This document shows positions 1-62,395 of a DNA stretch of 64,000 nt, one piece after another. The notes beneath the pieces are model-generated. The model was not told the origin of the DNA. It made no database searches and saw only the letters and a program-made list of their open reading frames with translations. Each line of letters begins with the position of its first letter. The stretch's first letter is position 1. Position numbers and translations under genes: made by a program. This stretch comes from Eledone cirrhosa (taxonomy: Eukaryota): NCBI GenBank assembly GCA_964016885.1, contig OZ024760.1, forward strand, positions 27,962,001 to 28,026,000. The letters are read 5' to 3'.

Positions 1-445
1 ATTTACGATATTAAATAAATGGAAACTATATTTATAAAACCATATTTATTTCATTATATATATTTCAGGGATATCATATTAACAATATGTTATGCCTTCT
101 TCAGACAAAATACAATATAGACAGTTTTATAGATAAATAGATTTGACATACCGTTCAACATCGACTTGTATTTGAAAAAGTTGATTTTCAAATACAAGTC
201 GATGTTGAACGGTATGTCAAATCTATTTATCTATAAAACTGTCTATATTGTATTTTGTCTGAAGAAGGCATAACATATTGTTAATATGATATCCCTGAAA
301 TATATATAATGAAATAAATATGGTTTTATAAATATAGTTTCCATTTATTTAATATCGTAAATATACTCCAAATACTTGTTGAGTGCTTTTATATCAGTTA
401 TAAATATTTACTAGTTGTAACCCAACAATTTAAATATAACTTTCC

Positions 446-446
<1 letters not shown>
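1..446 (+). mobile_element. Fold-back PLE-type terminus (family A): 178-bp inverted arms plus 3' tail ending at (TA)n
   Basis: 1-178 is the reverse complement of 185-362 around a 6-nt loop (agttga), and the left arm may extend beyond the window. Tail 363-446 (ttgttgagtgc...aactttcc) recurs at 2091-2160, 29230-29310, 34738-34782 and 37570-37645. Confidence 0.8.
251..316 (+). ncRNA. Type I hammerhead ribozyme (mirror copy on - strand at 47-112)
   Basis: Stem I TATTTTGT/ATGAAATA; core CTGAAGA 259-265; stem II AGGcATAaCATATT-gtt-AATATGaTATcCCT; GAAA 297-300; palindromic TATATA; UA cleavage site. Confidence 0.8.
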
Positions 447-1062: not shown

Positions 1063-1238
1063 ATAGGAAAAAGTATGACCCCCGACGGCAGAGCTCAAGC
1101 CGTTTCGACGGCTATTTCGAAACGGCTTGAGCTCTGCCGTCGGGGTCATACTTTTTCCTATTACCCACTCTACTACCCTAAGTATTGAGTACTCTGGTGC
1201 GTTATGGTCCATCTGGTTCCTTACCACACCTCCTTCGT
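1063..1238 (+). mobile_element. Fold-back element (family B) carrying the 3' half of a hammerhead plus a GAGTAC tail
   Basis: Arms ataggaaaaagtatgaccccc...gtttcga / tcgaaacggc...tttttcctat. GAAA-CGGC...GCCG-TC is an HHR stem III with GUC site. Related copies at 54097-54275 and tail at 62328-62395. Confidence 0.7.
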
Positions 1239-1521: not shown

Positions 1522-1580
<59 letters not shown>

Positions 1581-1633
1581 GCCAAGACTGGAATTGAACC
1601 ATCAGCACGGTTGAGGTATGTCAGACATTAATT

Positions 1634-1699
1634 TATTTTATCTGATGAGGACGTACCGAGGAAACACCACAGTACCTCTGAAATATATATAATAAAATA
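1634..1699 (+). ncRNA. Type I hammerhead ribozyme in a family-A-related PLE-type fragment (approx. 1580-1950)
   Basis: Perfect stem I TATTTTAT/ATAAAATA; CTGATGA 1642-1648; stem II GGAcGTAC...GTACcTCT; GAAA TATATA TA. Confidence 0.85.
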
Positions 1700-1730
1700 T
1701 TTGATCACATGAATGTCTATATTTATTAAT

Positions 1731-1915
1731 TGTTTCTACGTTAGGCACAAGGCCAGAAATTAGCCAGTGTATTACTGGTACTATATTTTATCGACCCCGT
1801 AAGGATGAAAGGCAAAGTCAACCTCGGCGGGATTTGAACTCAGATCGTAAAGGGACGTAACTAGGCTGGAAAGCATGGCGTCCGACCCTCTACCGATACT
1901 GCCAATCCACCGCCT
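1731..1915 (-). mobile_element. Nin-domain SINE with 18-bp target site duplication
   Basis: Reverse complement of the 1251 SINE, flanked by atgtctatatttattaat at 1713-1730 and 1916-1933. Confidence 0.9.
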
Positions 1916-2220: not shown

Positions 2221-2425
2221 TAAGTTATTCCGGGTTGAATCGGAGGTAACCACAGTAAGTAAGGTACTCAATACATAGCAGAAGCAGAGTATAAATGTTT
2301 TAATATAGAAGAGCTTCTACAGGACTAGAACCGTTTCATTCGTGAGAAATCATCAGGAATCTTCCTGGTGATTTCTCACGAATGAAACAGTTCTAGTCCT
2401 GTAGAAGCTCTTCTATATTAAAACA
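2221..2425 (-). mobile_element. Tail plus fold-back element (family C) with hammerhead core at the hairpin apex
   Basis: Arms 2296-2359/2362-2425. Minus strand reads CTGATGA-tTTCtcacGAAt-GAAAC...GTC. Tail reads ttgagtacc... toward (TA)n. Relic copy at 54308-54377. Confidence 0.7.
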
Positions 2426-2858
2426 AATATATATCTATATATATGCACACACATTTATATTTACACACTCACACTCACTGACACACCCACATACACACAC
2501 ACACACACACACGCAGACACACACACACACACACACTATCTATACTTAACATAACTGCTCGCAAAAATATGCATCCATGCATCATTCTTATCAGGTCTAT
2601 CTGATTTACGTGTGTGTGTGTGTGTGTGTGTGTGCGCATGTGTGTGTGTGTTTGTGTGTGTATGTATGTGTGTGTGTGTGTCTATATATTTATGTATATG
2701 TATGCATATATGTACATTTGGATTCACCTAGGTATGTGTGTGTGTTTGTGTGTGTTTGTGTGTGTGTGTGCGTGCATTGTTCGTCAAGTATGAAATATGT
2801 AGAACTTTGTTTTTTTTTCTATAAATTTCTACAAATTTCATACTTAACGACCCAATAC

Positions 2859-9519: not shown

Positions 9520-9520
<1 letters not shown>

Positions 9521-9670
9521 AGTAAAATGACAGAAGGCTGGACTGGTGAAATTCCTTAAAGGTTTATTATAAACACCTATGCACATGGTTTATTATAAAG
9601 GTTTATTATACACCATTTCAATGACCGGGTTCTGCAGGAACCAGGTGACATCATCAGGTGTTACGAAATT
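9520..9670 (-). mobile_element. PLE-type fragment with rearranged hammerhead; same family as hairpin 37192-37282
   Basis: Minus strand aacac-CTGATGA-long stem II-GAAA. aaatgacagaaggctgga...ccttaaagg is shared with 37200-37238. Confidence 0.55.
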
Positions 9671-9795
9671 TTTCTATTAAAGGAATATAATAATGGTAGA
9701 CACAATCCAAGGGGCTGAACAGTAGAGAGAAAGGTTTAAGACCTGAAGGTGGCCAGAGCCAGCAGGTGCCAGCCTGGGCGACCGCCTTCAAGTAA

Positions 9796-9826
<31 letters not shown>

Positions 9827-9832
9827 TATATA

Positions 9833-10112
9833 TATTAAATTACAAATATTAATAAAATAGATGTTCTTTTCATCAATTACATTCTATTATACATATTTCG
9901 GATGTACAACAGTACGTCCTCGTCAGACAAAATATAATGATACATGACATTACCCTGAGATGTTAAATGGTTAAGATTTAATCAAGGTAGTCTTGATTAA
10001 ATCTTAACCATTTAACATCTCAGGGTATGTCATGTATCATTATATTTTGTCTGATGAGGACGTACTGTTTTACATCCTGAAAAGAACATCTATTTTATTA
10101 ATATTTGTAATT

Positions 10113-10113
<1 letters not shown>
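9833..10113. mobile_element. Fold-back element (family A-like) with hammerhead at 9880-9934 (-)
   Basis: Apex gtagt 9987-9991. Minus strand TATTTTGT-CTGACGA-GGAcGTAC tgtt GTACaTCC-GAAA-TATGTA-TA-ATAGAATG. The right arm is deleted after GAAA. Confidence 0.8.
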
Positions 10114-10160
<47 letters not shown>

Positions 10161-10165
<5 letters not shown>

Positions 10166-10498
10166 ACAGGGAGAAAGAGACGATTATTAAGAAGAAAGAT
10201 ATATTGTTTTCCTTTTTTGTTTCTCTCTCTCTTTTTTCTGGTTAGAAATGATTAAAACGAAATGTTTTACTTTGTGTGAAGTGTTAAGGTATTAGTTGAT
10301 TTATTTATATTTACAATGGCATTTATTTATCTATTTATATATTTAATTATAAATATAAATAAAATCAACTAATACCTTAACACTTCACACAAAGTAAAAC
10401 ATTTCGTTTTAATCATTTTCTACCCAGAAAAAGAGACAGAGAAACAAAAAGGAAAAAAAATATATCTTTCTTTTTAATAATCGTCTCTTTCTCCCTGT

Positions 10499-10503
<5 letters not shown>
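10161..10503. mobile_element. Fold-back element (family F), centre-deleted version of 29353-29821
   Basis: Approx. 150-bp imperfect inverted arms tgaaaacagggagaaag... / ...ctttctccctgttttca between (TA)n tracts. Confidence 0.8.
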
Positions 10504-10534
<31 letters not shown>

Positions 10535-10755: not shown

Positions 10756-10790
10756 AACTCGTGTGCTTCCTCTCCACATTTTATTATTAT

Positions 10791-12268: not shown

Positions 12269-12325
12269 GTGGCTGTGTGTAATATATATGTGTGTGTATG
12301 TGTGTGTATATATAATATATAGAGA

Positions 12326-12790
12326 GAGAGAATTAGTACATCTACCAACATATGCGTACAGATGTACACTAATACTAGTAAATATATAAGTTATGTCAAA
12401 GTACCTAGGTGGTTCTATGCAGGAGGATGCAGAACAATTATATGAAAGACGTAAAATAAGAACATTTTAAAAATTAAAAATTAACTTACTTACTAAAATT
12501 TTCACTCCAACTAATTAGTTTCTGTAATGGGATAATATAGTTACACAATATAACTATCGAGAATTCATTACGTCATCAGGGAGTCTATTCTCAGCTAAGT
12601 TCCCAGGCAATGCGCGGACACTAGGAACCCATATAAAATAATAATTCAGTGGATGTAATAAGCTAGCGAGGACTAAATTCATAGCACTGAAAAAGTTCAC
12701 TGCCTCTGGTCAGTGGCAGATTCTAAAGAATCAATCACGTGACACTGAGGTTAGTCAGTTAGGAGTTGGGGTGGGTATTATGACAAGAGC

Positions 12791-12856
<66 letters not shown>

Positions 12857-13600
12857 TGAATTAGCAGTAGATTTGGCAAGTTGCTCAACAAATAATTTGA
12901 GATAATATAGAGAATTAGTACATCTACCAACATATGCGTACAGATGTACACTAAATGCTAGCAAATATATAAGTTATGTCAAAGTACCTAGGTGGTTCTA
13001 TGCAGGAGGATGCAGAACAATTATATGAAACACGTAAAATAAGAAAATTAAAAATTAAAAATTAACTTACTTACTAAAATTTTCACTCCAACTAATTAGT
13101 TTCTGTAATGGGATACATATAGTTACACAATATAACTATCGAGAATTCATTACGTCATCAGGGAGTCTATCTCAGCTAAGTTCCCAGGCAATGCGCGGAC
13201 ACTAGGAACCCATTATAAAATAATAATTCAGTGGATGTAATAAGCTAGCGAGGACTAAATTCCATATACTAAGAATAGACTCCCTGATGACGTAATGAAT
13301 TCTCGATAGTTATATTGTGTAACTATATTTATCCCATTACAGAAACTAATTAGTTGAGTGAAAATTTTAGTAAGTAAGTTAATTTTTAATTTTTTAAAAT
13401 TTTCTTATTTTACGTCTTTCATATAATTGTTCTGCATCCTCCTGCATAGAACCACCTAGGTACTTTGACATAACTTATATATTTGCTAGCATTAGTGTAC
13501 ATCTGTACACATATGTTGGTAGATGTACTAATTCTCTATATTTATCTCCAAATTATTTGTTGAGCAAACTTGCCAATCTACTGCTAATTCATTAGGTAGT

Positions 13601-13633
<33 letters not shown>

Positions 13634-13936
13634 GCTCTTGTCATAATATCACCCCCACTCCTAACTGACTAACCTCAGTGTCACGTGAACTTTTCAGTGC
13701 TATGGAACTTAGTCCTCGCTAGCTTATTACATCCCACTGAATTATTATTTTTATATAGGTTCCTAGTGTCCGCGCATTGCCTGGGAACTTAGCTGAGAAT
13801 AGACTCCCTGATGACGTAATAAATTCTCGATAGTTATATTGTGTAACTATATTTATCCCATTACAGAAACTAATTAGTTGGAGTGAAAATTTTAGTAAGT
13901 TAATTTTTAATTTTTAAAATTTTCTTATTTTACGTC

Positions 13937-13940
<4 letters not shown>
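12326..13940. mobile_element. Tandem-plus-inverted array of a 520-580 bp hammerhead-bearing monomer (4 HHRs)
   Basis: Units start at 12328 and 12910 (period 582), then the inversion begins near 13265. HHRs at 12504-12584(-), 13085-13166(-), 13279-13359(+) and 13803-13884(+): ACTCC-CTGATGA-stem II-GAAA-CTAATTAG-TT-GGAGT. Confidence 0.85.
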
Positions 13941-14034
<94 letters not shown>

Positions 14035-28676: not shown

Positions 28677-28679
<3 letters not shown>

Positions 28680-29008
28680 AGGGAGTATAACTTGGAGTTA
28701 CTGTAGGTTCACCCGTGTGAGCACTCGATGTTTAGGTTCACTTCAGTGTCGAGGTGTAGAGCTAGACAGAGTGTATTATAGTGAAATAAGATAACAAGGA
28801 CGATTGGTTACTCCCTCATTACATTTATTGGTTGGTGACGCGCGTTTCGCCACTTGTAATGCTAGTAGCATTACAAGGGGTCAGACGAGCCGCAGATTTG
28901 ACTCGGGTAGGATCGATACAGATCGAACCTTGAGCTGATCAGTGGAAAAACGTGCGTCACCAACCAATAAATGTAATGAAGGAGTAACCAATAGTCCTTG
29001 TTATCTTT

Positions 29009-29016
<8 letters not shown>
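28677..29016 (-). mobile_element. Tail plus fold-back element (family H) with decayed long-stem-II hammerhead
   Basis: Arms 28777-28854/28940-29016; GAAA-CGCGCG-TC-ACC; tail cgagtgctcac... Related to 49000-49145 and 11720-11775. Confidence 0.7.
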
Positions 29017-29040
<24 letters not shown>

Positions 29041-29043
<3 letters not shown>

Positions 29044-29306
29044 AGGGATAACTTGAACCGTTAAGGTACATTCTCGTTGGTTATGTCACTATTTATAAAA
29101 CACACTTTTTATTTTATCTGATGATAGCGTACCAAAATTTTGGTACTCTTGAAATATATATAATAGAATAAATAGGGTTTTTATAAATATAGTTTCCATT
29201 TATTTAATATCATTGTATATTATACTCCTGAAACTTGTTGAGTGCTCTGAATCAGTTATAAACATTTATATTTGTTGAATCACCAATAAATTGAATATCT
29301 CTTCTG

Positions 29307-29310
<4 letters not shown>
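29041..29310 (+). mobile_element. Family A solo terminus with hammerhead 29109-29171
   Basis: TTATTTTAT-CTGATGA-tAGcGTACCAA..TTGGTACtCTt-GAAA-TATATA-TA-ATAGAATAA. Closely similar copy at 37377-37645 with the same boundaries. Confidence 0.85.
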
Positions 29311-29352
<42 letters not shown>

Positions 29353-29357
<5 letters not shown>

Positions 29358-29821
29358 ACAGGGAGAAAGAGACGATTATTAGGAAGAAAAAAATATTTTT
29401 TTCCTTTTTTGTTTCTCTCTCTCTTTTTTCTGGGTTAGAAAATGATTAAAACGAAATGTTTTACTTTGTATTAAGGTATTAGTTGATTTATGTATTATTT
29501 AACAATGGCATTTATTTATCTATTTATTTTTTTTTTATTGTCTATTACCGGTTTCAGCATTTTTATGCGACACCACACTAATACATTTCACTATCATTTG
29601 ATAATGCATAAAAATACTGAAACCGGTAATAGACAATAATTAAATAGATAAATAAATGCCATTGTTAAATAATAAATAAATCAACTAATACCTTAACACT
29701 TCACATAAAGTAAAACATTTCGTTTTAATCATTTTCTAACCCAGAAAAAAGAGAGAGAGAAACAAAAAAGGAAAACAATATATCTTTCTTCTTAATAATC
29801 GTCTCTTTCTCCCTGTTTTCA
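29353..29821. mobile_element. Family F fold-back element with U3-A8 variant hammerhead at the apex
   Basis: Approx. 215-bp arms. ctatcat-TTGATAA-tGCAT aaaa AT(g/a)Ct-GAAA-CCGG-TA-ATAG near 29591-29632. Confidence 0.75.
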
Positions 29822-29908
29822 TATATATATATATATATATAACTCGTGTGCTTCCTCTCCACATTTTATTATTATTATTATTATTATATATATATATATA
29901 CATATATA

Positions 29909-30151
29909 TTTAAAAAAATAGAGGTGTAACACACGACAAATTTTTCCCAGTGAAAAATAGTTTAATTAGGAATAAGTATAAATCAGTAATAAGTATTGGT
30001 TAGTATTTAGTTTTAGTTTTAAGTTTTAAGTTGCGCATTTCTAATGCTTTTCAAAAATAATTTTGTGATAGAGCGCTCGTGATGTTTGCTCTATTCCTAA
30101 TAAAACTATTTTTCACTGGGAAAAATTTGTCAGCATTTTCTTTTCCTTTTA

Positions 30152-30157
<6 letters not shown>
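29909..30157. mobile_element. Decayed fold-back element; tail and arm repeated at 30751-30820
   Basis: gacaaatttttcccagtgaaaaatagttt / aaactatttttcactgggaaaaatttgtc. Minus-strand TTGAAAA...GAAA TGCGCA relic near 30031-30055. Confidence 0.55.
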
Positions 30158-30183
<26 letters not shown>

Positions 30184-30190
<7 letters not shown>

Positions 30191-30576
30191 GTGAGGTTTT
30201 CTTTACAAAATGAAAAATAACCGAGGTGTCCTACACGAGTAAGAGTATAAAGAAAAAAAGATGAAATCGAAAATGCAACTGGAGTCTTATTTAAAAATAT
30301 ATATATATTTATTTGGTTCCTTTACCGGTTTCGCAGTTCTTCTGCTTTTCAAAAGTAGAGCTGAGATGGAGGGTCTGTGGTTTTTCTCACATCTGTGATG
30401 TGAGAAAAACCACAGATGTGAGAAAAACCTCAGATGTGAGAAAAACCACAGACCCGCCATCTCAACTCTACTTTTGAAAAACAGAAGAACTGCGAAACCC
30501 GTAAAGGAAGCAAATAAATATATATATTTTTTTTAAAAATAAGACTCCAGTTGCATTTTCGATTTCATCTTTTTTT

Positions 30577-30583
<7 letters not shown>
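30184..30583 (-). mobile_element. Family L tail plus fold-back with U3-A8 hammerhead (30320-30355)
   Basis: Arms 30246-30395/approx. 30433-30583. Minus strand CTT-TTGAAAA-GCAG aagaa CTGC-GAAA-CCGG-TA-AAG. Confidence 0.8.
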
Positions 30584-30623
<40 letters not shown>

Positions 30624-30642
30624 CGTGTGCTTCCTCTCCACA

Positions 30643-30674
<32 letters not shown>

Positions 30675-30814
30675 GTACCAGTAATGCACTGGGTAATTGC
30701 TCGCCTTGTGCCTAACGTAGAAACAATTATTATTATTATATATATATATATTTAAAAAAATAGAGGTGTAACACACGAGTTGTGATATATTAGTAAAAGG
30801 AAAAGAAAATGCCG

Positions 30815-32300: not shown

Positions 32301-33660
32301 ACCCTCGTCTGGGATGCCACTTGCAGCGACACTTCCTCCAGCCGCAACCCGGTGCCGTCTGCGACTAACCCAGGTTCTGCAGCACTTCGGGCTGAGGAGG
32401 CCAAACTCTCCAAGTATCGGTCGCTTTCCGACGGGTTCGGGGTCGTGTCGGTGGCAGTGGAGACTTCTGGTGTCCTTGGCACTAGGGCTACCTCCCTACT
32501 TACCACCACAGGTACTGAGCTGGCTACCCGTAGCAGTGGATATTTCTAGTGTCCTTGGCCCTAGGGTTCCCTCCCTACTTACCAGCACAGGTACTGAGCT
32601 GGCTACCCGTAGCAGTGGAGACTTCTGGTGTCCTTGGCCCTAGGGTTCCCTCCCTACTTATCAGCACAGGCGCTGAGCTGGCTACCCGTAGCAGTGGAGA
32701 TTTCTAGTGTCCTTGGCCCTAGGGTTCCCTCCCTACTTATCAGCACAGGTACTGAGCTGGCTACCCGTAGCAGTGGAGATTTCTAGTGTCCTTGGCCCTA
32801 GGGTTCTCTCCCTACTTACCAGTACAGGTACTGAGCTGGATACCCGTAGCAGTGGAGACTTCTGGTGTCCTTGGCACTAGGGCTACCTCCCTACTTACCA
32901 CCACAGGTACTGAGCTGGCTACCCGTAGCAGTGGAGATTTCTAGTGTCCTTGGCCCTAGGGTTCTCTCCCTACTTACCAGCACAGGTACTGAGCTGGCTA
33001 CCCGTAGCAGTGGAGATTTCTAGTGTCCTTGGCCCTAGGGTTCCCTCCCTACTTACCACCACAGGCGCTGAGCTGGTTACCCGTAGCAGTGGAGATTTCT
33101 AGTGTCCTTGGCCCTAGGGTTCCCTCCCTACTTACCAGCATAGGCGCTGAGCTGGTTACCCGTAGCAGTGGAGATTTCTAGTGTCCTTGGCCCTAGGGTT
33201 CCCTCCCTACTTACCACCACAGGCGCTGAGCTGGTTACCCGTAGCAGTGGAGATTTCTAGTGTCCTTGGCCCTAGGGTTCCCTCCCTACTTACCAGCATA
33301 GGCGCTGAGCTGGTTACCCGTAGCAGTGGAGATTTCTAGTGTCCTTGGCCCTAGGGTTCCCTCCCTACTTACCAGCATAGGCGCTGAGCTGGTTACCCGT
33401 AGCAGTGGAGATTTCTAGTGTCCTTGGCCCTAGGGCTACCTCCCTATTTACCACCATAGGCGCTGAGTTGACTACTCCTAGCAGTGGAGATTTCTGGTGT
33501 CCTTGGTCCTAGGGCCACTCCCGCAACTCACCACCACAGGCGCCGAGCTGGCCAACCGCAGGCGTGAGCCTCGCGAGATGCAATGTCTCTTCCAGCGCAA
33601 CTCCTTTACCATCCTCCGGGGAAACACCTCCTCCATTCGGCCCGCTAAGGCTGTGGGGCG
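32301..33660 (+). mobile_element. CRE-clade non-LTR retrotransposon RLE 3' fragment split by an internal 79-bp tandem expansion
   Basis: LVWDATCSDT...AALRAEEAKLSKYRSL...VAVETSGVLG before the array and ELANRRREPREMQCLFQRNSFTILRGNTSSI after it, matching CRE RLE WDAT / AE..K..KY / VET.G / QR.S..I.RGN motifs. Confidence 0.85.
32454..33550 (+). repeat. 79-bp minisatellite (13 full units plus a partial one)
   Basis: gcagtgga starts every 79 bp from 32454 to 33481. Confidence 0.95.
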
Positions 33661-34608: not shown

Positions 34609-34735
34609 TTCGTTCCATGTTTACATACATATATACATATATACATACTTACATATATACATACATATATATATATATATATTTCGTTCCATGTTTACAT
34701 ACATATATACATACTTACATATATACATACATATA
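34383..34735. repeat. Approx. 70-78 bp minisatellite (5 units)
   Basis: Repeated atttcgttccatgtttacatacatatatacatacttac. Confidence 0.9.
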
Positions 34736-34867
34736 TATAAATATTTGCTTGTTGTATCCCAACAAATTAAATATAACTTCTTATATATATATATATATAC
34801 ACTGTATATATATATATATATATAAGAGAGAGATTACAATAATCAAAGTTCAGTTTAAGTCATTTAT

Positions 34868-34916: not shown

Positions 34917-35324
34917 CTATTTACTGATCTATAACATACTTGACCTCCTTTTCAACCCAAGAGATACATAAAACATATGCGCATATTGATCAACAGTGGG
35001 GTTACATTTTATTGCATACATAACCATAAATAGTACCCTTAATACTATATATATATATATATACTCAATTACAGAATGAACAACACAATATATTTATTTC
35101 ATTACCGAAGTTGATGATGCTTGCAGAAACATCTAGTAAGTTCGTCAGAAGATGTTTCTGCAACAATCATCCAGTTTCTCGCAAACTTTGGTAAGGAAAT
35201 AATTATAGTATGTTCTTTATTATGTAATTAAATAGCTCTGTTCTACACATAGAGCACTTTTCTTTCCTTTACCTTTTCTACAAAAATACTGAACTCAAAC
35301 ACACTTAGGATTTGAACTCAGATT

Positions 35325-35727
35325 GTGCCGTTCCATTAATGGATTGTGCTTGTAAATTCCTAACTAGTTGTGTTCTTTCTGTTCCTGTGAAGCCCAGCTT
35401 CTCAAGATTTGTATTGAGGCAGTTACTAACATACCCCAGTGCCCCAATAATCACAGGTATAAATCTGAAGGTGTAATCAGGGTGGAGTATCTGCAGATTT
35501 CTCATCAGTTCTACATAAATATTCCCCTTTTCTCTAATCTTTGATATTATACTGCCATCTGCTGGGCAGCTAATTTCCACTACTGCGCATGTTTTCTTCT
35601 CCCTGTCCCATATCATAATATCTGGACTGTTATGCCTGCATTTTATTGGGGTTTTTACTGGAACATTCCACCAGTACTCTTTCATATTATGTACATGGAT
35701 GTCTTCCACATTGCTGTAACTTTTAGT
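35325..35727 (-). pseudogene. Restriction-like endonuclease domain of an R4/Dong-clade non-LTR retrotransposon (5'-truncated, open frame)
   Basis: YWWNVPVKT...HNSPDIMIWD...VVEISCPAD...KIREK...Y...IPVIIGALG is a PD-(D/E)xK RLE of the R4 type, adjacent to (TA)n/(ATAC)n. Confidence 0.85.
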
Positions 35728-35730
35728 ATG

Positions 35731-35790
<60 letters not shown>

Positions 35791-35796
35791 CATACA

Positions 35797-36008
35797 TGAT
35801 GATGGCTGCCCCCCCCCCTCGTTATCGAGTATGGCCATTGCACGATATAATATTATTAATAATTATCAATTAATGCTATTGTGCAATGCCTGTGCGTGAA
35901 GATATTTTTTAAAGTGAGGAAAGACTGTGCACTGAGCCAATCCCACTCTCTGAGCGACAGTAGCTGTAACTCGAATAGAAGAAAACATCAACATCCTCGG
36001 TAACTACA
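35797..36008 (-). mobile_element. 5'-truncated copy of the 55545-56056 retroposon
   Basis: Reverse complement of approx. 55853-56056, with a short (CAT) tail. Confidence 0.85.
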
Positions 36009-36528: not shown

Positions 36529-36687
36529 TGGTGTTGGATGCTTAAAGCGTCCGTATGCGGTAGGCCGTATGAGCACTCAATGCCCTCATAGAGCAGAGTA
36601 TGATATCACAAAAAAAAAGAGAATCGGTGTTGCGACGATATATGTCCAATAAATTCCTTTCGTCGCAACACTGATTCTCTTTTTTCT

Positions 36688-36693
<6 letters not shown>
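36529..36693 (-). mobile_element. GAGTGC tail plus short fold-back; related to approx. 54985-55100
   Basis: Arms 36602-36638/36660-36693. gcgtccgta.gcggta.gccg.atgagca is shared with 55004-55031. Confidence 0.65.
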
Positions 36694-36717
<24 letters not shown>

Positions 36718-36724
<7 letters not shown>

Positions 36725-37027
36725 AGAGATGAAATCGAAAATGCAACTGGAGTCTTACTTTTTTAAAAAATATATATATTTATTTGGTTCCTTTACCGGT
36801 TTCGCAGTTCTTCTGCTTTTCAAAAGGTGAGTTGAGATGGAGGGTCTCTCACCTTTTGAAAAGCAGAAGAACTGCGAAACCGGTAAAGGAACCAAATAAA
36901 TATATATATTTAAAAAAAAAATAAGACTCCAGTTGCATTTTCGATTTCATCTCTTTTTCTTTATACTTTCACTCGTGTAGGACACCTCGGTTATTTTTCA
37001 TTTTGTAAAAAAAACCTCACTTTCTAA
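36718..37027 (+). mobile_element. Family L fold-back with two intact U3-A8 hammerheads (36790-36827 -, 36852-36889 +) plus tail
   Basis: CCTT-TTGAAAA-GCAGaagaaCTGC-GAAA-CCGG-TA-AAGG. Tail matches the reverse complement of 30184-30245. Confidence 0.85.
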
Positions 37028-37049
37028 TATATATATATATATATATATA

Positions 37050-37282
37050 TTCAGGTTTGAGGTTCACCACTGTATAGAGCTGGTCTATTCCGTATGGTCA
37101 ATCGTAATGCAATAATATAGAGAGTACTCAACGTAAAGCAGTTCAACCGTCTTAGTTTTTATAGTTGGTGGTGCTATTACGGAGTTAAATATTATAATGA
37201 AATGACAGGAGGCTGGATTTGTGTAAATCCTTGAAAGGTTTTAAGGATTTACACAAATCCAGCCTCTTGTCATTTCATTATA
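37050..37282 (-). mobile_element. GAGTAC tail plus short fold-back
   Basis: Arms 37194-37232/37242-37282. Minus-strand ttgagtactc approx. 75 nt from (TA)n. Confidence 0.65.
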
Positions 37283-37283
37283 T

Positions 37284-37374
<91 letters not shown>

Positions 37375-37376
37375 TA

Positions 37377-37642
37377 TCCAGGGATAACTTGAACCGTTAA
37401 GGTATATTATCCTTGGTCATGTCAAATATTTATAAAACATTTTGTATTTTATCTGATGATAGCGTACCAAAGTTTTTGGTACCCTTGAAATATATATAAT
37501 AGAATAAATATAGTTTTATAAATATAGTTTCCATTTATTTAATATCATTGTATATTACACTCCAGAAAACTTGTTGAGTGCTCTGATTCAGTTATAAACA
37601 TTTATATTTATTGAATTACCAACAAATTGAATATTCCTTCTG

Positions 37643-37645
<3 letters not shown>
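37377..37645 (+). mobile_element. Family A solo terminus with hammerhead 37445-37506
   Basis: Paralog of 29041-29310; CTGATGA 37453-37459, GAAA 37487-37490. Confidence 0.85.
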
Positions 37646-42954: not shown

Positions 42955-44130
42955 GGTTTGAGGGAGACGTGGCTGTTATATCTAGCCCTTCGTGAGACCA
43001 CATAGGAGCTTATTACACAGGATGTTTCTACTGGAAGTCATTGACCTCCAGACGTTTGAGGGAGACGTGGTTGTTATCTCTAGCCCTTCGTGAGACCACA
43101 TAGGAGCTCATTACACAGGATGTTTTAACTGGAAGTCATTGACCTCCTGACGTTTGAGGGAGACGTGGCTGTTATCTCTAGACCGTCGTGAGACCACATA
43201 GGAGCTCATTACACAGGATGTTTTAACTGGAAGTCATTGACCTCCTGACGTTTGAGGGAGACGTGGCTGTTATCTCTAGACCGTCGTGAGACCACATAGG
43301 AGCTCATTACACAGGATGTTTTAACTGGAAGGCATTGAACTCCAGACGTTTGAGGGAGGCATGGTTGTTATCTCTAGCCCTTCGTGAGACCACATAGGAG
43401 CTCATTACACAGGATGTTTTAACTGGAAGTCATTGACCTCCTGACGTTTGAGGGAGACGTGGCTGTTATCTCTAGACCGTCGTGAGACCACATAGGAGCT
43501 CATTACACAGGATGTTTCAACTGGAAGGCATTGAACTCCAGACGTTTGAGGGAGGCATGGTTGTTATCTCTAGCCCTTCGTGAGACCACATAGGAGCTCA
43601 TTACACAGGATGTTTTAACTGGAAGTCATTGACCTCCTGACGTTTGAGGGAGACGTGGCTGTTATCTCTAGACCGTCGTGAGACCACATAGGAGCTCATT
43701 ACACAGGATGTTTCAACTGGAAGGCATTGAACTCCAGACGTTTGAGGGAGGCATGGTTGTTATCTCTAGCCCTTCGTGAGACCACATAGGAGCTCATTAC
43801 ACAGGATGTTTTAACTGGAAGTCATTGACCTCCTGACGTTTGAGGGAGACGTGGCTGTTATCTCTAGACCGTCGTGAGACCACATAGGAGCTCATTACAC
43901 AGGATGTTTCAACTGGAAGGCATTGACCTCCAGACGTTTGAGGGAGGCATGGTTGTTATCTCTAGCCCTTCGTGAGACCACATAGGAGCTCATTACACAG
44001 GATGTTTCAACTGGAAGGCATTGAACTCCAGACGTTTGAGGGAGGCATGGTTGTTATCTCTAGCCCTTCGTGAGACCACATAGGAGCTCATTACACAGGA
44101 TGTTTCAACTGGAAGGCATTGACCTCCAGA
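42955..44130. repeat. 98-bp minisatellite (approx. 12 units)
   Basis: gacgtttgagggag recurs at 43051, 43149, 43247 and onward. Confidence 0.95.
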
Positions 44131-44366
44131 CAAAGCTGTAACAGCGACTCTTAAATAAGAGTTTTCACAAGCGTGACTTTCACTAATGGTTTTAACATTT
44201 CTGTAAAAACAAGGAGAGATTTATGACTCAAACCTCTTAGATGGTATTTCTAGAAGAGGTCACAACTTCTGATATTAAACAGAAAGTCTTCTAACCCTTT
44301 TAATACCAACAAGTCTAAAATAGCACGAATTTCTACAGCACTAAACTATGTTATAAGGAGTATAAA

Positions 44367-44965: not shown

Positions 44966-47958
44966 TGTAGGAGTCTAGCTAAGGCGAGATGTAACCCTGT
45001 AGGAGTCTAGCTAAGGCGAGATGCAACCTTGTAGGAGTCTAGCTAAGGCGAGATGTAACCCTGTAGGAGTCTAGCTAAGGCGAGATGTAACCCTGTAGGA
45101 GTCTAGCTAAGGCGAGATGCAACCTTGTAGGAGTCTAGCTAAGGCGAGATGTAACCCTGTAGGAGTCTAGCTAAGGCGAGATGTAACCCTGTAGGAGTCT
45201 AGCTAAGGCGAGATGTAACCCTGTAGGAGTCTAGCTAAGGCGAGATGTAACCCTGTAGGAGTCTAGCTAAGGCGAGATGCAACCTTGTAGGAGTCTAGCT
45301 AAGGCGAGATGCAACCTTGTAGGAGACTAGCTAAGGTGAGATGTAACCCTGTAGGAGTCTAGCTAAGGCGAGATGTAACCCTGTGTGAGTCTAGCTAAGG
45401 CGAGATGTAACCCTGTAGGAGTCTAGCTAAGGCGAGATGTAACCCTGTAGGAGTCTAGCTAAGGCGAGATGTAACCCTGTAGGAGTCTAGCTAAGGCGAG
45501 ATGCAACCTTGTAGGAGTCTAGCTAAGGCGAGATGCAACCTTGTAGGAGACTAGCTAAGGTGAGATGTAACCCTGTAGGAGTCTAGCTAAGGCGAGATGT
45601 AACCCTGTGTGAGTCTAGCTAAGGCGAGATGTAACCCTGTAGGAGTCTAGCTAAGGCGAGATGTAACCCTGTAGGAGTCTAGCTAAGGCGAGATGTAACC
45701 CTGTAGGAGTCTAGCTAAGGCGAGATGTAACCCTGTAGGAGTCTAGCTAAGGCGAGATGCAACCTTGTAGGAGACTAGCTAAGGTGAGATGTAACCCTGT
45801 AGGAGTCTAGCTAAGGCGAGATGTAACCCTGTGTGAGTCTAGCTAAGGCGAGATGTAACCCTGTAGGAGTCTAGCTAAGGCGAGATGCAACCTTGTAGGA
45901 GTCTAGCTAAGGCGAGATGTAACCCTGTAGGAGTCTAGCTAAGGCGAGATGTAACCCTGTAGGAGTCTAGCTAAGGCGAGATGTAACCCTGTGTGAGTCT
46001 AGCTAAGGCGAGATGTAACCCTGTAGGAGTCTAGCTAAGGCGAGATGTAACCCTGTAGGAGTCTAGCTAAGGCGAGATGCAACCTTGTAGGAGACTAGCT
46101 AAGGCGAGATGCAACCTTGTAGGAGTCTAGCTAAGGCGAGATGTAACCCTGTAGGAGTCTAGCTAAGGCGAGATGTAACCCTGTAGGAGTCTAGCTAAGG
46201 CGAGATGTAACCCTGTGTGAGTCTAGCTAAGGCGAGATGTAACCCTGTAGGAGTCTAGATAAGGCGAGATGCAACCTTGTGTGAGTCTAGCTAAGGCGAG
46301 ATGTAACCCTGTAGGAGTCTAGCTAAGGCGAGATGTAACCCTGTGTGAGTCTAGCTAAGGCGAGATGTAACCCTGTAGGAGTCTAGCTAAGGCGAGATGT
46401 AACCCTGTAGGAGTCTAGCTAAGGCGAGATGCAACTCTGTAGGAGTCTAGCTAAGGCGAGATGTAACCCTGTAGGAGTCTAGCTAAGGTGAGATGTAACC
46501 CTGTAGGAGTCTAGCTAAGGCGAGATGTAACCCTGTAGGAGTCTAGCTAAGGCGAGATGCAACTCTGTAGGAGTCTAGCTAAGGCGAGATTTAACCCTGT
46601 AGGAGTCTAGCTAAGGCGAGATGTAACCCTGTAGGAGTCTAGCTAAGGCGAGATGTAACCCTGTAGGAGTCTAGCTAAGGCGAGATGTAACCCTGTGTGA
46701 GTCTAGCTAAGGCGAGATGTAACCCTGTGTGAGTCTAGCTAAGGCGAGATGTAACCCTGTGTGAGTCTAGCTAAGGCGAGATGTAACCCTGTGTGAGTCT
46801 AGCTAAGGCGAGATGTAACCCTGTAGGAGTCTAGCTAAGGCGAGATGCAACCTTGTAGGAGTCTAGCTAAGGCGAGATGTAACCCTGTAGGAGTCTAGCT
46901 AAGGTGAGATGTAACCCTGTAGGAGTCTAGCTAAGGTGAGATGTAACCCTGTAGGAGTCTAGCTAAGGCGAGATGTAACCCTGTAGGAGTCTAGCTAAGG
47001 CGAGATGCAACCTTGTAGGAGTCTAGCTAAGGCGAGATGCAACCTTGTAGGAGTCTAGCTAAGGCGAGATGCAACCTTGTAGGATTCTAGCTAAGGCGAG
47101 ATGTAACCCTGTAGGAGTCTAGCTAAGGCGAGATGCAACCTTGTAGGAGTCTAGCTAAGGCGAGATGTAACCCTGTAGGAGTCTAGCTAAGGCGAGATGC
47201 AACCCTGTAGGAGTCTAGCTAAGGCGAGATGTAACCCTGTGTGAGTCTAGCTAAGGCGAGATGTAACCCTGTGTGAGTCTAGCTAAGGCGAGATGCAACC
47301 CTGTAGGAGTCTAGCTAAGGCGAGATGTAACCCTGTGTGAGTCTAGCTAAGGTGAGATGTAACCCTGTGTGAGTCTAGCTAAGGCGAGATGTAACCCTGT
47401 AGGAGTCTAGCTAAGGCGAGATGTAACCCTGTGTGAGTCTAGCTAAGGTGAGATGTAACCCTGTGTGAGTCTAGCTAAGGTGAGATGTAACCCTGTGTGA
47501 GTCTAGCTAAGGCGAGATGTAACCCTGTAGGAGTCTAGCTAAGGCGAGATGTAACCCTGTAGGAGTCTAGCTAAGGCGAGATGTAACCCTGTAGGAGTCT
47601 AGCTAAGGTGAGATGTAACCCTGTAGGAGTCTAGCTAAGGTGAGATGTAACCCTGTAGGAGTCTAGCTAAGGTGAGATGTAACCCTGTGTGAGTCTAGCT
47701 AAGGCGAGATGTAACCCTGTAGGAGTCTAGCTAAGGCGAGATGTAACCCTGTAGGAGTCTAGCTAAGGTGAGATGTAACCCTGTGTGAGTCTAGCTAAGG
47801 CGAGATGTAACCCTGTGTGAGTCTAGCTAAGGCGAGATGTAACCCTGTGTGAGTCTAGCTAAGGCGAGATGTGACCCTGTGTGAGTCTAGCTAAGGCGAG
47901 ATGTAACCCTGTAGGAGTCTAGTTAAAGCGAGATGCAACTCTGTAGGAGTCCAGCTAA
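44966..47958. repeat. 32-bp satellite, approx. 93 units
   Basis: tgtaggagtctagctaaggcgagatgtaaccc head-to-tail with no spacers. Confidence 0.97.
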
Positions 47959-48682: not shown

Positions 48683-48950
48683 GGGGGCACAAGTGTCTCT
48701 CTCCCCTCTCTCCCCCCCTCTCTCTCTCTAGTAATAAGAATATTTATATTTATATATGTTTAATACAATTATAAATATGGAGGGTAAGTACTATAACACT
48801 AACAACACTTATGTATCCTAAATGCTCTGAATGACGATTTTAGTCACGTTTTGACATTCCCTATGCTCCGATGATTCCAGACTTCCCTCTGGAAGAAACA
48901 ATTGTCAGCAAATAAATGTTCTAAACTAAAATTTGATCGTTTTAACACTT

Positions 48951-48999
<49 letters not shown>

Positions 49000-49001
<2 letters not shown>

Positions 49002-49145
49002 CAAGGATGAATAGTTACCCTTCATTACGTTCATTGGCTGGTGACACGCGTTTCGCTACTGATCAGCTCAAGGTTCGATCTGTATCAATCTAGCCCGACT
49101 CTGGAATCAAAAGCTCGTCGGACCCCTGTGGTAGTGATGACAGAA
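49000..49145 (-). mobile_element. Family H fragment with long-stem-II hammerhead-like motif
   Basis: GGT-CCGACGA-GCT...AGC-GAAA-CGCGTG-TC-ACC on the minus strand, homologous to 28790-28960. Confidence 0.65.
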
Positions 49146-49459
49146 AAAAATATGTGTGTATGTATGCGTGTATATATATATATGTATATCATCACCCGGA
49201 TCACTGATGGCGGCTCATGTGTGGTGTAGTTCTTTTGTCACACATATCTGTGACATCTTCAGCGATCATCATGTTTCCATGTTTCTTCCCGTTCTGTTCC
49301 TATATTTTCTGATTTCATTTTGTTTTATTTATTTATTGTTATCTCTGTCTGCGCATGCGTCTGTGTGTTTGTATTCTGTTTATTTTGTTTGCAGCGTGCC
49401 CCACCCTGTACCCCCATGCTCCTCGCATGCACCCATACACTGGCACACACACACACATA

Positions 49460-51358: not shown

Positions 51359-51714
51359 GGTGGTAGTGGTGGTGGTGGTGGTGGTGGTAGTAGTTGTAGT
51401 AGTAATAATGGTGGTGGTAGTAGTAGTTGTAGTAATGGTGGTAGTGGTGGTGGTAGTGGTGGTAGTAGTAGTAGTGGTGGTAATGGTAGTAGTAGTAGTT
51501 GTAGTAGTAGTGGTGGTGGTAGTAGTGGTGGAGGTAGTGGTAGTAGTAGTAATTGTGGTGGTTGTAGTGGTAGTAGTAATGGTGGTGGTAGTAGTGGCGT
51601 ATTGTTGATATGCCATTTACATCTCACACCTATGTAGGTTTAGCTGGCCTCCCTCCAATGTTAGGTCTCATAGGGGGTTTCTTGGGTGTTTTAATGATAG
51701 GGACCCCAGTCCTA

Positions 51715-51772
<58 letters not shown>

Positions 51773-52603
51773 TTGCTGAGTCGCTTGCCTCATTAAGTCT
51801 CATGATATGGTTCTGGAATGTAGAGAGCTTCTCAAGTGACCTTGTCGTCCAATTAACACAGTCAAGACCATATAACACAACTGGTAGGATGTATGTATCG
51901 AAGATCTTAGCCTTCAAATGATAGTAAACTCGTTTTGATATTAGTACTTCCTTGTCCTTGTTGAAAGCTGCCCAACCTAGAGCGATTCGATACTGCGCAG
52001 CATCCATTCCATTGTTGTTTGGTGATAGTTTGTGACTCTGTCTTGTGACACTAAACTCCGCCAGTTGCAGTCTGCACATCAACATGTGATATCTCTCTCC
52101 ACAAAGTTCGATCACCTCCAGCAGAGTTTAAAGAGCAAAGATCAAGTCCAGTCCATAGGTTAACATTGTCAAGCCGCCGTTTCGGCTGCCAGCCTCTACT
52201 TCTCCTACCAGCCAACCTTCCTTCTAGGCATAACCTACTCACACCACGAGTTGATCTTTTTATATGGCCGTATAGTTTGCGTACTCTTGACTTGACAATT
52301 GATGTAATTGGTTTAAGTCTGGTAATGTTGAGCAGGTCACTGATACAGATACGGTCGCTGAGTCGCTTGCCAGTCATAAGTCTCATGATGTGGTTCTGGA
52401 ATATAGAGAGCTTCTGAAGTGACCTTGTCGTCGTCCAATTAACACAGTCAAGACCATATAACACAACTAGTAGGATGTAAGTATTGAAGATCTTAGCCTT
52501 CAAATGATAGTAAAGTCGTTTTGATGTTAGTACTTCCTTGTCCTTGTTGAAAGCTGCCCAACCTAGAGCGATTCGATATTGCGCAGCAACCATTCCATTG
52601 TTT
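51773..52603 (-). mobile_element. RTE-clade LINE 3' fragment (52020-52603) with partial tandem duplicate (51773-52016)
   Basis: RIALGWAAF...KAKIFNTYIL.VVLYG...YGHIKR...LEGRLAGRRSRG...DRTLWR is the RTE C-terminal region. Confidence 0.9.
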
Positions 52604-53229
52604 GGCCATATTTTGTGACCGAAAGCTACAAACTCTGTAACTTCAGCAGTGACTGCACCACATTAGATATTAAAGTTTACTGTAAATTTCCACGACGATT
52701 TCTCGACTAATTTAGACACTATAAACATTTGAATTAACAAACAACAACTTTACATTAAGTCCTTCCGAGGTGAATATATGAAATACCAGTTACGTACTCG
52801 GGGTAGATATAGTTCACTATCTCCTTACCACCACCACTAAATGCCCCCAATGGTCAAGAAGTGGTGATAGTGGTGGTGATGGTGATGGCGGGGGTGGTAG
52901 TGGTAGTGGTGATGAGTGGTAGTAATGGTGATGGCGGGGGTGGGGTGATGGTCGTAGTGGTGATGATGGTGTGATGGTAGTGGTGGTGGTGGTAGTGTTG
53001 GTAATGGTGATAGTGGTGGTGATGGTGATTGTGTTGATGATGGTGATAGTAGTGGTGGTGATGGTGATGGTAGTGGTGGTAGTGGTGATTGTGATGGTAG
53101 TGGTGATGGTGGTGGTAGTGGTGATTGTGATGGTAGTGGTGGTGATGGTGATGGTGGTGGTGTTAAACCGGGCGGCAGATTTAAGTCTTCCTACAGATCT
53201 ACTCAAGCAGTCCTTTCGACAGACTTCCA

Positions 53230-53975: not shown

Positions 53976-54310
<335 letters not shown>

Positions 54311-54460
54311 CTACAGGACTAGGACTGTTTCATTCCTATTAAATCATCCAGATATTCATACGAATGAAACAGTTCTATATATAATAGAGGTGCCTAAACT
54401 CTACCAACGTGCAGAGTACCTTTTTTTAACTGTGATTAAAGCCCGACAACACTCAAGAAC

Positions 54461-60502: not shown

Positions 60503-61214
60503 TATATCAACTAGAAATTGATTGACAAATATATATCTAAAATAAACACATGAAACAATCACAGGGGATAATTTGTAAAGAGTGTAATCACACACAGCTA
60601 CGTAGGTAACTAATTAAAGTTTAACTAGAACTTTAAAAATAGATACCTTATAAATTGATTAATCTTCCTTGTATATATTTCATTAAAGAAATATATTTCA
60701 CCATTAATTGATCATTAAATCACAGTAGCCAAATCTCGGATTTTCAACAATGGAGAAGACTTAACTATCTGTATTTACACAGCAAATTCAAATCTGCGAA
60801 TGACTAGCAGCAGGTGTTGCATTTTTTAAAAATTGTCGATAACCCTATTCATGCCACTGGGATGAAGCTGGTACGATGTGTGTATTTTTTAAAAATGCAA
60901 CACGTGCTCCTAGTCATTCGCAGATTTCGATGTATAATCACAGATAGTTAAATCTTCTCCCTTGTTGAAAATCCAGATTTTGGCTACTGTAGTTTACCGA
61001 TCGATTGATGGTGAAATATATTTCTTTAATGAAATATATACAAGGAAGATTAATCAATTTATAAGGTATCTATATTTAAAGTTCTAGTTAAACTTTAATT
61101 AGTTACCTACCTAGCTATATGTGCTTACACACTTTTACAAATTATTCCCCGTGATTGTTTCGTATGTTTATTTTAGATATATATATATATGTCAATCAAT
61201 TTCTAGTTGATATA
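60503..61214. mobile_element. Long imperfect fold-back (approx. 330-bp arms, approx. 50-nt loop) with candidate U3-A8 hammerhead 60960-61045
   Basis: Arms tatatcaactagaaattgattgac... / ...gtcaatcaatttctagttgatata. CCTTG-TTGAAAA...GAAA-TATA-TA-CAAGG. Confidence 0.75.
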
Positions 61215-61306
61215 AAATGCTCGGATCTATTCATTGGAATCTTCGATCATATTCTACGGTGGATATGGCGCGTGTCTCTCTGACATGACAACCTTAATTC
61301 AATTGT

Positions 61307-61350
<44 letters not shown>

Positions 61351-62293: not shown

Positions 62294-62395
62294 TACATGT
62301 ATATATATCTACTACTATATATATATACTACCCTAAGTATTGAGTACTCTGGTGCGTTATGGTCCATCTGGTTCCTTACCACAACTCCTTCGTTA

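Follow-up and report, generated by a model that had tools for sequence, protein, structure and literature searches.

The window, by which we mean the whole 64-kb stretch of Eledone cirrhosa DNA analysed here, is AT-rich, with many (TA)n and other microsatellites and one 200-N gap. At least 13 hairpins had been claimed for it in a first-pass annotation, and all 13 were confirmed by arm-to-arm alignment, with arms of 36 to 331 nt that are 89-100% identical, excepting one 27-nt gap at 9988; indels are present in several of the arms. A strict finder (arm of at least 25 nt, loop of at most 100) returned 12 hairpins in the window and none in each of 20 local Markov resamples; the thirteenth, at 28777-29016, needs gaps for its arms to be aligned and lies outside these 12. 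Additional fold-backs were found at 35067-35229, 29935-30131 and 54309-54377, together with a mirrored tandem at 12322-13945. By self-comparison and alignment, the copies fall into about ten short, non-coding families, which are represented by single arms and lone tails as well. The hairpins are inserted in (TA)n, which also dominates a general listing of the inverted repeats of the window, and their arms stand head to head. Hammerhead cores read outward on both arms and the RNA 5' ends therefore meet at the apex, as the annotation had it. No Pfam match to a reverse transcriptase (RT) or GIY-YIG domain was obtained in the 72 non-simple frames scanned of the 271 in the window.

The window opens with a family A hairpin (1..362), the arms of which (1-178 and 185-362, 178/178 identical) enclose a 6-nt loop, the left arm being cut by the window edge. 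Its hammerhead motifs lie at 259-308 (+) and 104-55 (-), with the apex 80 nt before the core, and it is followed by a tail-like 3' extension at 363..444 (+) with (TA)n at its end; the opposite side of the hairpin lies outside the window. The other hairpin of this family (9831..10120) has no tail, an apex 63 nt before the core and a 27-nt deletion across the ribozyme in its right arm. Single family A arms, all on the plus strand, are located at 1577..1735 (hammerhead 1642-1691, 5' end 65 nt before the core) and, with tails, at 29041..29308 (hammerhead 29118-29162) and 37377..37644, the last with its 5' end as in the 29041 copy. Family D is represented by two hairpins with right tails, 1063..1238 (hairpin 1063-1161, tail 1162-1238) and 54096..54277, whose apices are identical; that of the former lies in the apparent hammerhead stem II. 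Family E has a hairpin with a left tail (2222..2431, hairpin 2290-2431) with a 2-nt loop and its apex 4 nt before the core, and the small fold-back at 54309..54377. Family G comprises a single arm on the minus strand (9520..9795, hammerhead core at 9657), which ends at the short site described below, and a hairpin with a left tail of 138 nt (37052..37285), its loop continuing the tail arm and its apex lying 3' of the ribozyme.

Two hairpins were assigned to family C. In 10160..10504 the 28-nt loop continues the left arm and no ribozyme lies inside, and a tail-like piece is found to the right (10757-10783), past (TA)n and a 200-nt insert; in 29350..29868 (hairpin 29350-29824) a 37-nt loop with a U3:A8 core continues the right arm, and the tail-like piece (29842-29868) comes after (TA)n. 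Family B likewise has two: 30186..30583, with a left tail (30186-30245), a first fold at 30394-30397 followed by two 18-nt slip copies, and an apex at the hot spot, 43 nt ahead of the core, which is at 30352; and 36716..37028, with a right tail, a 16-nt loop that continues the tail-less left arm, and U3:A8 hammerheads at 36856-36885 (+) and 36823-36794 (-). Family H includes a hairpin with a left tail (28678..29016, apex near 28869, 3-nt loop), whose left arm is without about 70 nt of the ribozyme, and a tail-less single arm at 49001..49147 (-). The remaining families have one structure each. The family J hairpin (29905..30155) has a 94-nt loop, and the degenerate U3:A8 core in this loop reads together with the left arm; the old family K hairpin with a right tail (35067..35305) has arms 72% alike, and its 15-nt loop contains the hammerhead core that belongs to the left arm, the one lacking a tail; the family F hairpin (36529..36694) has a left tail and no ribozyme that we could see; and the family I hairpin (60503..61308) has 331-nt arms, a 50-nt loop, U3:A8 hammerheads at 60965-61040 (+) and 60747-60672 (-) and a probable tail, known from this single copy, at 61215-61308. 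The mirrored tandem of family L (12322..13945) is built of hammerhead-bearing units of about 585 nt, partially repeated to either side of an apex near 13265, with the left arm extending further at both ends; partial tandem copies were seen in this family only. The family L unit is non-coding, contains a hammerhead with a long stem II and, internally, a run of (TAG)n, and resembles a retrozyme monomer.

Other repeats share the window. An abundant SINE, which we take to be of the cephalopod type, is present at 1252-1435, 1731-1914 and about 15 more places. Its pattern recurs at 121 loci in metagenome contigs, which resemble the SINE copies of the window only and none of the hairpin families, and in which four exact hairpins were counted in 257 kb; it had no matches in viral contigs, and the family B pattern had none in metagenome contigs. 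Two reading frames, 35308-35862 (-) and 51633-52662 (-), presumably are LINE remains of the restriction-like endonuclease type and the RTE type; Pfam gave a weak DUF6451 match for one of them only. Minisatellite arrays occupy 32451-33561, 42956-44131 and 44966-47958, with periods of about 79, 98 and 32-64 nt.

A tail is joined to one arm in nine of the 13 hairpins and to both arms in none (0 of the 12 assessable), which upholds the annotation's claim of one-sided tails for all except 1-362, which falls outside this judgement, the window starting in its left arm. To the right of both family C hairpins, beyond (TA)n, lies the same 27-nt piece, which occurs three times in the window and which we treat, with caution, as the tail of that family. 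Tail lengths range from 60 to 138 nt and exceed the published 30-40. In 9 of 10 families, CTC occurs within the first 11 nt of the tail (background 0.24, p 2e-5, with the motif picked after inspection), and in most families it could pair with a downstream GAG, the pairs being altered in K and L; among 14 tails, three fold better than shuffles (z below -2). The family B arm (30186-30432) was also compared with four public sequencing runs: X1 (4840 contigs) and X2 (4481 contigs), from one sample that is possibly the source of the window, X11 (2331 raw reads), from another study, and X5 (10 contigs), from another organism, a relative. Many family B records stop at 30246 on (TA)n (among the ends listed, 54 in X1, 43 in X2 and 76 raw reads in X11), so that the short 3' end is fixed, and tail-less single arms likewise end near the short site.

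Lone tail pieces stand in (TA)n at 2088-2160, 34734-34780, 62326-62393, 10757-10783, 29842-29868 and 30621-30647; they may be cDNAs stopped at the short start site, or tails severed from their arm by growth of (TA)n. A block consisting of the C tail, (ATT)n, (TA)n and the start of family J appears twice around a family B hairpin (29842-29935 and 30621-30780), possibly through local duplication. The far end of the family H tail (28678-28700), when reversed, resembles the 5' start (29041-29060) common to two family A single arms.

Type-I hammerhead motifs, searched with a relaxed descriptor at a score of at least 11, number 14 in the window against 0-1 in 10 resamples. Most families bear such minimal motifs, and none was seen in family F; stem III is palindromic or short, and families B, C, I and J have the U3:A8 core. 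An Rfam search of the window gave no match at gathering score, and one of six ribozyme motifs folds better than its shuffles (z below -2). A palindromic stem III and the U3:A8 core are both on record for the hammerheads of Penelope-like elements, or PLEs (Cervera and De la Pena 2014, PMC4209133). Further motifs lie outside the hairpins at 48868-48906 (+), 34911-34873 (-) and 21357-21303 (-), the first two having a palindromic stem III and a CCGA core in common. The ribozyme is partly missing from one arm of 9831-10120 (27 nt) and of 28777-29016 (about 70 nt), as if the stem had been skipped or deleted.

According to the first-pass annotation, the apex lies at or near the ribozyme. Six of the 13 apices are inside the core or no more than 15 nt before it, four are 43-86 nt before it, and three hairpins have no ribozyme. 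For the 10 hairpins of known family geometry, four apices are in the zone against 4.2 expected, under a rough null in which the upstream limit of each family is the furthest end seen; this does not show enrichment, and the share in the zone is about what the short length of the elements predicts. Enrichment of apices at the ribozyme was thus rejected as unproven. The claim that apices differ within a family holds for B and C, while the apex is one and the same in the two D copies, and the apices of B concentrate at a strong hot spot.

This hot spot emerged from the sequencing runs. Two fold-back forms at 30394, which are 2 and 5 letters shorter than that of the window and have loops of 1 and 2 nt, reach summed depths of 15762 and 10510 of 229211 in X1 and of 2325 and 5937 of 190930 in X2, far in excess of the 6-30 usual for one listed contig, depths not being copy numbers. 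In X11 one read has the first of these forms, and about 46 reads, probably from one locus, reach the folded-back part (30402-30415); no fold-back depth was found among the 10 contigs of X5. The apex at 36840, which is the window's own, is missing from the listed joints, so the comparison under-reports changes of strand; the joints from 30387 to 30335 and from 30396 to 30373, for which no kind is given, were left out of the counts. Plain, non-hairpin ends on (TA)n, among the ends listed, cluster at 30392-30394, and in the sequence beyond 30395 TATAAAA lies about 30 nt upstream in the sense direction in all of X1, X2, X11 and X5. From these two features, the hot spot, which precedes the ribozyme by 43 nt and follows a TATA box at a distance of ~30 nt, is likely to be the RNA 5' end, that is, a transcription start predicted from the loose-end consensus only. 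In family A, the 7 of 7 ends listed fall 63-80 nt before the core and 33-40 nt before a common motif, which in three of five loci reads as a splice donor. The recurrent end in families A and B thus looks like an RNA 5' end. The Penelope of D. virilis has its intron donor 46 nt after the start, and its promoter is internal and TATA-less (Schostak 2008, PMC2377424).

The loop could be assigned to one arm in seven tail-bearing structures. It continues the tail-less arm in three, at 36840 (30 of 32 against 11), 10332 (44 against 12) and 35148 (core in the loop), of which the 10332 case leans on a tail that lies beyond (TA)n and an insert, and the 35148 case is old; it continues the tail arm in four, at 37237, 29587, 30033 and 13265. 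Outside these seven stand the two D copies, E, F, I and the family A hairpin with its apex at 181, in which the polarity is undecided, and the family B apex at 30413, which is near symmetric. The loop at 28896 was at one stage counted as a tail-less-arm case (80 against 19) and then dropped, the apex being symmetric near 28869 and the left arm internally deleted. Once inserted, loops can undergo inversion or loss of their centre; at 36840, the 62 identical bases that adjoin the loop mark the copy as young. Variant sharing among the family L units was noisy and was set aside.

We consider it very probable that these short hammerhead units in (TA)n are Penelope-like end-repeats (pLTRs) of PLE origin. 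EN+ PLE insertions have an adjacent, inverted and 5'-truncated copy, a one-sided tail and a bias to (TA)n (Craig 2021, PMC8557442), so the layout matches, as do the hammerheads in type, and the annotation was right to regard the hairpins as Penelope-like products. How the two arms arise is a matter of finer judgement. The head-to-head arms, the (TA)n flanks, the hammerhead motifs, the fixed short and fixed long (tail) 3' ends and the loops that continue either arm form the observed basis of the route which we favour, at about even odds, namely that both nicked ends of the target prime a cDNA each and that the two cDNA 3' ends are joined head to head. Transcription of a short RNA would begin from the pLTR promoter, at 40-80 nt from the ribozyme on its 5' side, and the RNA would stay uncleaved until copied. 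The PLE reverse transcriptase/GIY-YIG protein, supplied in trans and probably as a dimer, would bind the small CTC...GAG stem that opens the tail and nick both strands of (TA)n. One end would be primed at the far end of the tail and the other just before the stem, which would leave the tail one-sided. Each cDNA would then extend to the RNA 5' end or stop early, and the two antisense cDNA 3' ends would be joined via 0-3 paired bases with mutual fill-in, a step that would let either arm be the longer and the loop be as short as 1-2 nt. Several of these activities have been described for purified PLE protein, which introduces nicks into both strands of the target and extends them, initiates at two RNA sites bounding the tail, prefers uncleaved RNA and is predicted to be a dimer (Frangieh 2024, PMC11167929).

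The strongest competitor, which we hold to be the less probable of the two, is that a single target-primed cDNA folds and copies itself, the endonuclease cutting or joining the second strand at the short site. Self-priming is already in print, head-to-head palindromes having been read as self-priming on an antisense template (Arkhipova 2013, PMC3846280), and tail formation has been ascribed to endonuclease resolution (Craig 2021, PMC8557442). The arms of a hairpin are closer to each other than to other copies, as expected from one template; the tail arm is the longer in four of the seven decidable cases; and the family D apices in ribozyme stem II are natural fold-back points. With its two 18-nt slip copies, the apex at 30413 is well accounted for by folding back and slippage on the tail arm, and it speaks against priming at both ends. 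However, the loop formed by folding of a single cDNA must continue the first-made arm, and the tail can be on that arm only, so that tails on the 5'-shorter arm (36840, 35148 and 10332) would need a second cDNA or a later rearrangement. A 1-nt loop, moreover, is unable to prime, while two cDNAs that end at the same base with their last bases paired would yield one, and the loops of 1 and 2 nt at 30394 are what two such cDNAs would give. The absence of two-tailed hairpins (0 of 12 assessable) would call for a separate precise stop. The annotation had proposed one snap-back per insertion: the parts of this that stand are that the hairpins are PLE products and that their apices vary, but the three tail-less-arm loops and the frequent apex with a 1-nt loop are left unexplained by it. 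These loops, together with the activities reported in Frangieh 2024, lead us to favour priming from both ends over self-copying, and both routes may operate.

It is rather improbable that the variety of apices and the loop polarity are secondary, with hairpins, or a few master copies, reshaped by deletion of the centre and by inversion of the loop between the arms. Palindromes are unstable, the two D copies share an apex, and at 9988 and 28869 the loss of ribozyme sequence from one arm does represent later or in-copy remodelling; the high-depth apices could stem from amplified hairpin masters. Against this, the 36840 copy with its 62 identical bases next to the loop is young, the plain ends fall on the same hot spot as the apices, and deletions would tend to lengthen loops and not to yield loops of 1-2 nt.

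The possibility that the hairpins are TA-targeting MITEs or foldback DNA transposons with terminal inverted repeats is very slight. The two termini are identical in both copies of family C, which are TA-flanked, and a TSD cannot be read in flanks of (TA)n; yet we observed one-sided tails, single arms and lone tails where symmetric fixed termini belong, hammerheads that read outward, apices that differ in B and C, a tandem unit in family L and no terminal motif common to the families. The asymmetric ends already largely refute this reading, and the annotation's statement that the arms are not MITE TIRs is borne out. Least credible of all are library or assembly fold-back artefacts, to which one might ascribe the perfectly identical arms of 1-362, the possible origin of the window from the X1/X2 sample and the fact that no listed contig spans the entire family B stretch compared, but most arms differ by substitutions and indels, the ends are family-specific, and the fold-back forms recur in two runs, with the reads of another study (about 46, probably one locus) reaching 30402-30415.

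Taken as a whole, the hairpins are genuine, and what they show is for the most part the PLE signature already known, here in new short families. The annotation overstated their novelty in seeing an extension of the inverted-pLTR layout, which is already found in Craig 2021, Schostak 2008, Cervera 2014 and Arkhipova 2013. PLE inverted repeats vary in size by copy (Schostak 2008, PMC2377424), opposite-strand hammerhead pairs lie 100-700 bp apart in metazoan PLEs (Cervera 2014, PMC4209133), and inverted pLTRs with 3' extensions are routine in a curation guide (PMC8969392). Penelope families are listed in an octopus repeat annotation, the main text of which is silent on hammerheads or palindromes (PMC13282606). 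The EN+ PLEs and the copies of the window have in common a head-to-head inverted copy of variable length, a tail at one end, partial tandems, microsatellite targets and palindromic junctions. The window differs in the tails (60-138 nt against 30-40), in its many unrelated short families with a common stem at the tail boundary, and in the lack of an ORF between the repeats, so that the whole insert is the hairpin. With the PLE hammerheads of Cervera 2014 (PMC4209133) it shares type I, the short or palindromic stem III, the U3:A8 variant and the opposite-strand pairs a few hundred bases apart; those pairs were recorded there in an account that does not include apex or tail analysis, and the motifs of the window are predicted from sequence.

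The origin of the inverted ends and tails of PLEs is named as an open question in Craig 2021 (PMC8557442), and the later steps of insertion were left unvalidated in Frangieh 2024 (PMC11167929). Our tentative and somewhat doubtful overall reading is that very abundant pLTR-only Penelope derivatives record a dimer that primes two cDNAs at a (TA)n break, from sites flanking a conserved RNA stem, the cDNAs being run to the transcription start and joined head to head. If true, double-ended insertion would account at a single stroke for both the inverted pLTR and the one-sided tail in every Penelope-like element. Junction types cannot be counted in full-length PLEs, given their length and rarity, whereas the copies found here, of 100-700 nt, are abundant and fit in one read; the polarity of the loop relative to the side of the tail, the length of the loop and the position of the apex can therefore be counted by thousands, to set self-copying against double priming. 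Automatic annotation could misclassify such copies, given their resemblance to TA-flanked MITEs. We found no published use of double priming for PLE inverted ends, of a link between apex and start site, or of loop polarity; Arkhipova 2006, Evgen'ev and Arkhipova 2005, Pyatkov 2004 and the supplements of Frangieh 2024 may bear on it.

Among the systems compared, the Poseidon element of Anolis in vitro (Frangieh 2024, PMC11167929) shares with the window an AT-rich target and two start sites bounding the tail, and its nicking and extension of both strands, its stem-loop in the start region and its uncleaved RNA template are paralleled in our reading of the window. The main text of that study gives no account of an inverted arm, and the RNA used carries the start of an ORF, while the arms in the window show no coding sign. 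Short hammerhead units have been argued to be non-autonomous PLE derivatives, termed non-LTR retrozymes (bioRxiv 10.64898/2026.07.22.740005). These, too, are short non-coding units with a type-I hammerhead, and the family L tandem unit of about 585 nt is of this kind; but non-LTR retrozymes are defined by head-to-tail tandems, whereas most copies in the window are head-to-head pairs or single arms, and two or more head-to-tail hammerhead units were seen in the window in family L (two cores per arm) and in no other family. L1 twin priming (bioRxiv 10.1101/2024.12.14.628481) resembles the route proposed here in that reverse transcription extends both ends of a break, which are then joined. It copies two non-overlapping parts of the mRNA, whereas the two cDNAs in the window would cover the same part and so produce a palindrome.
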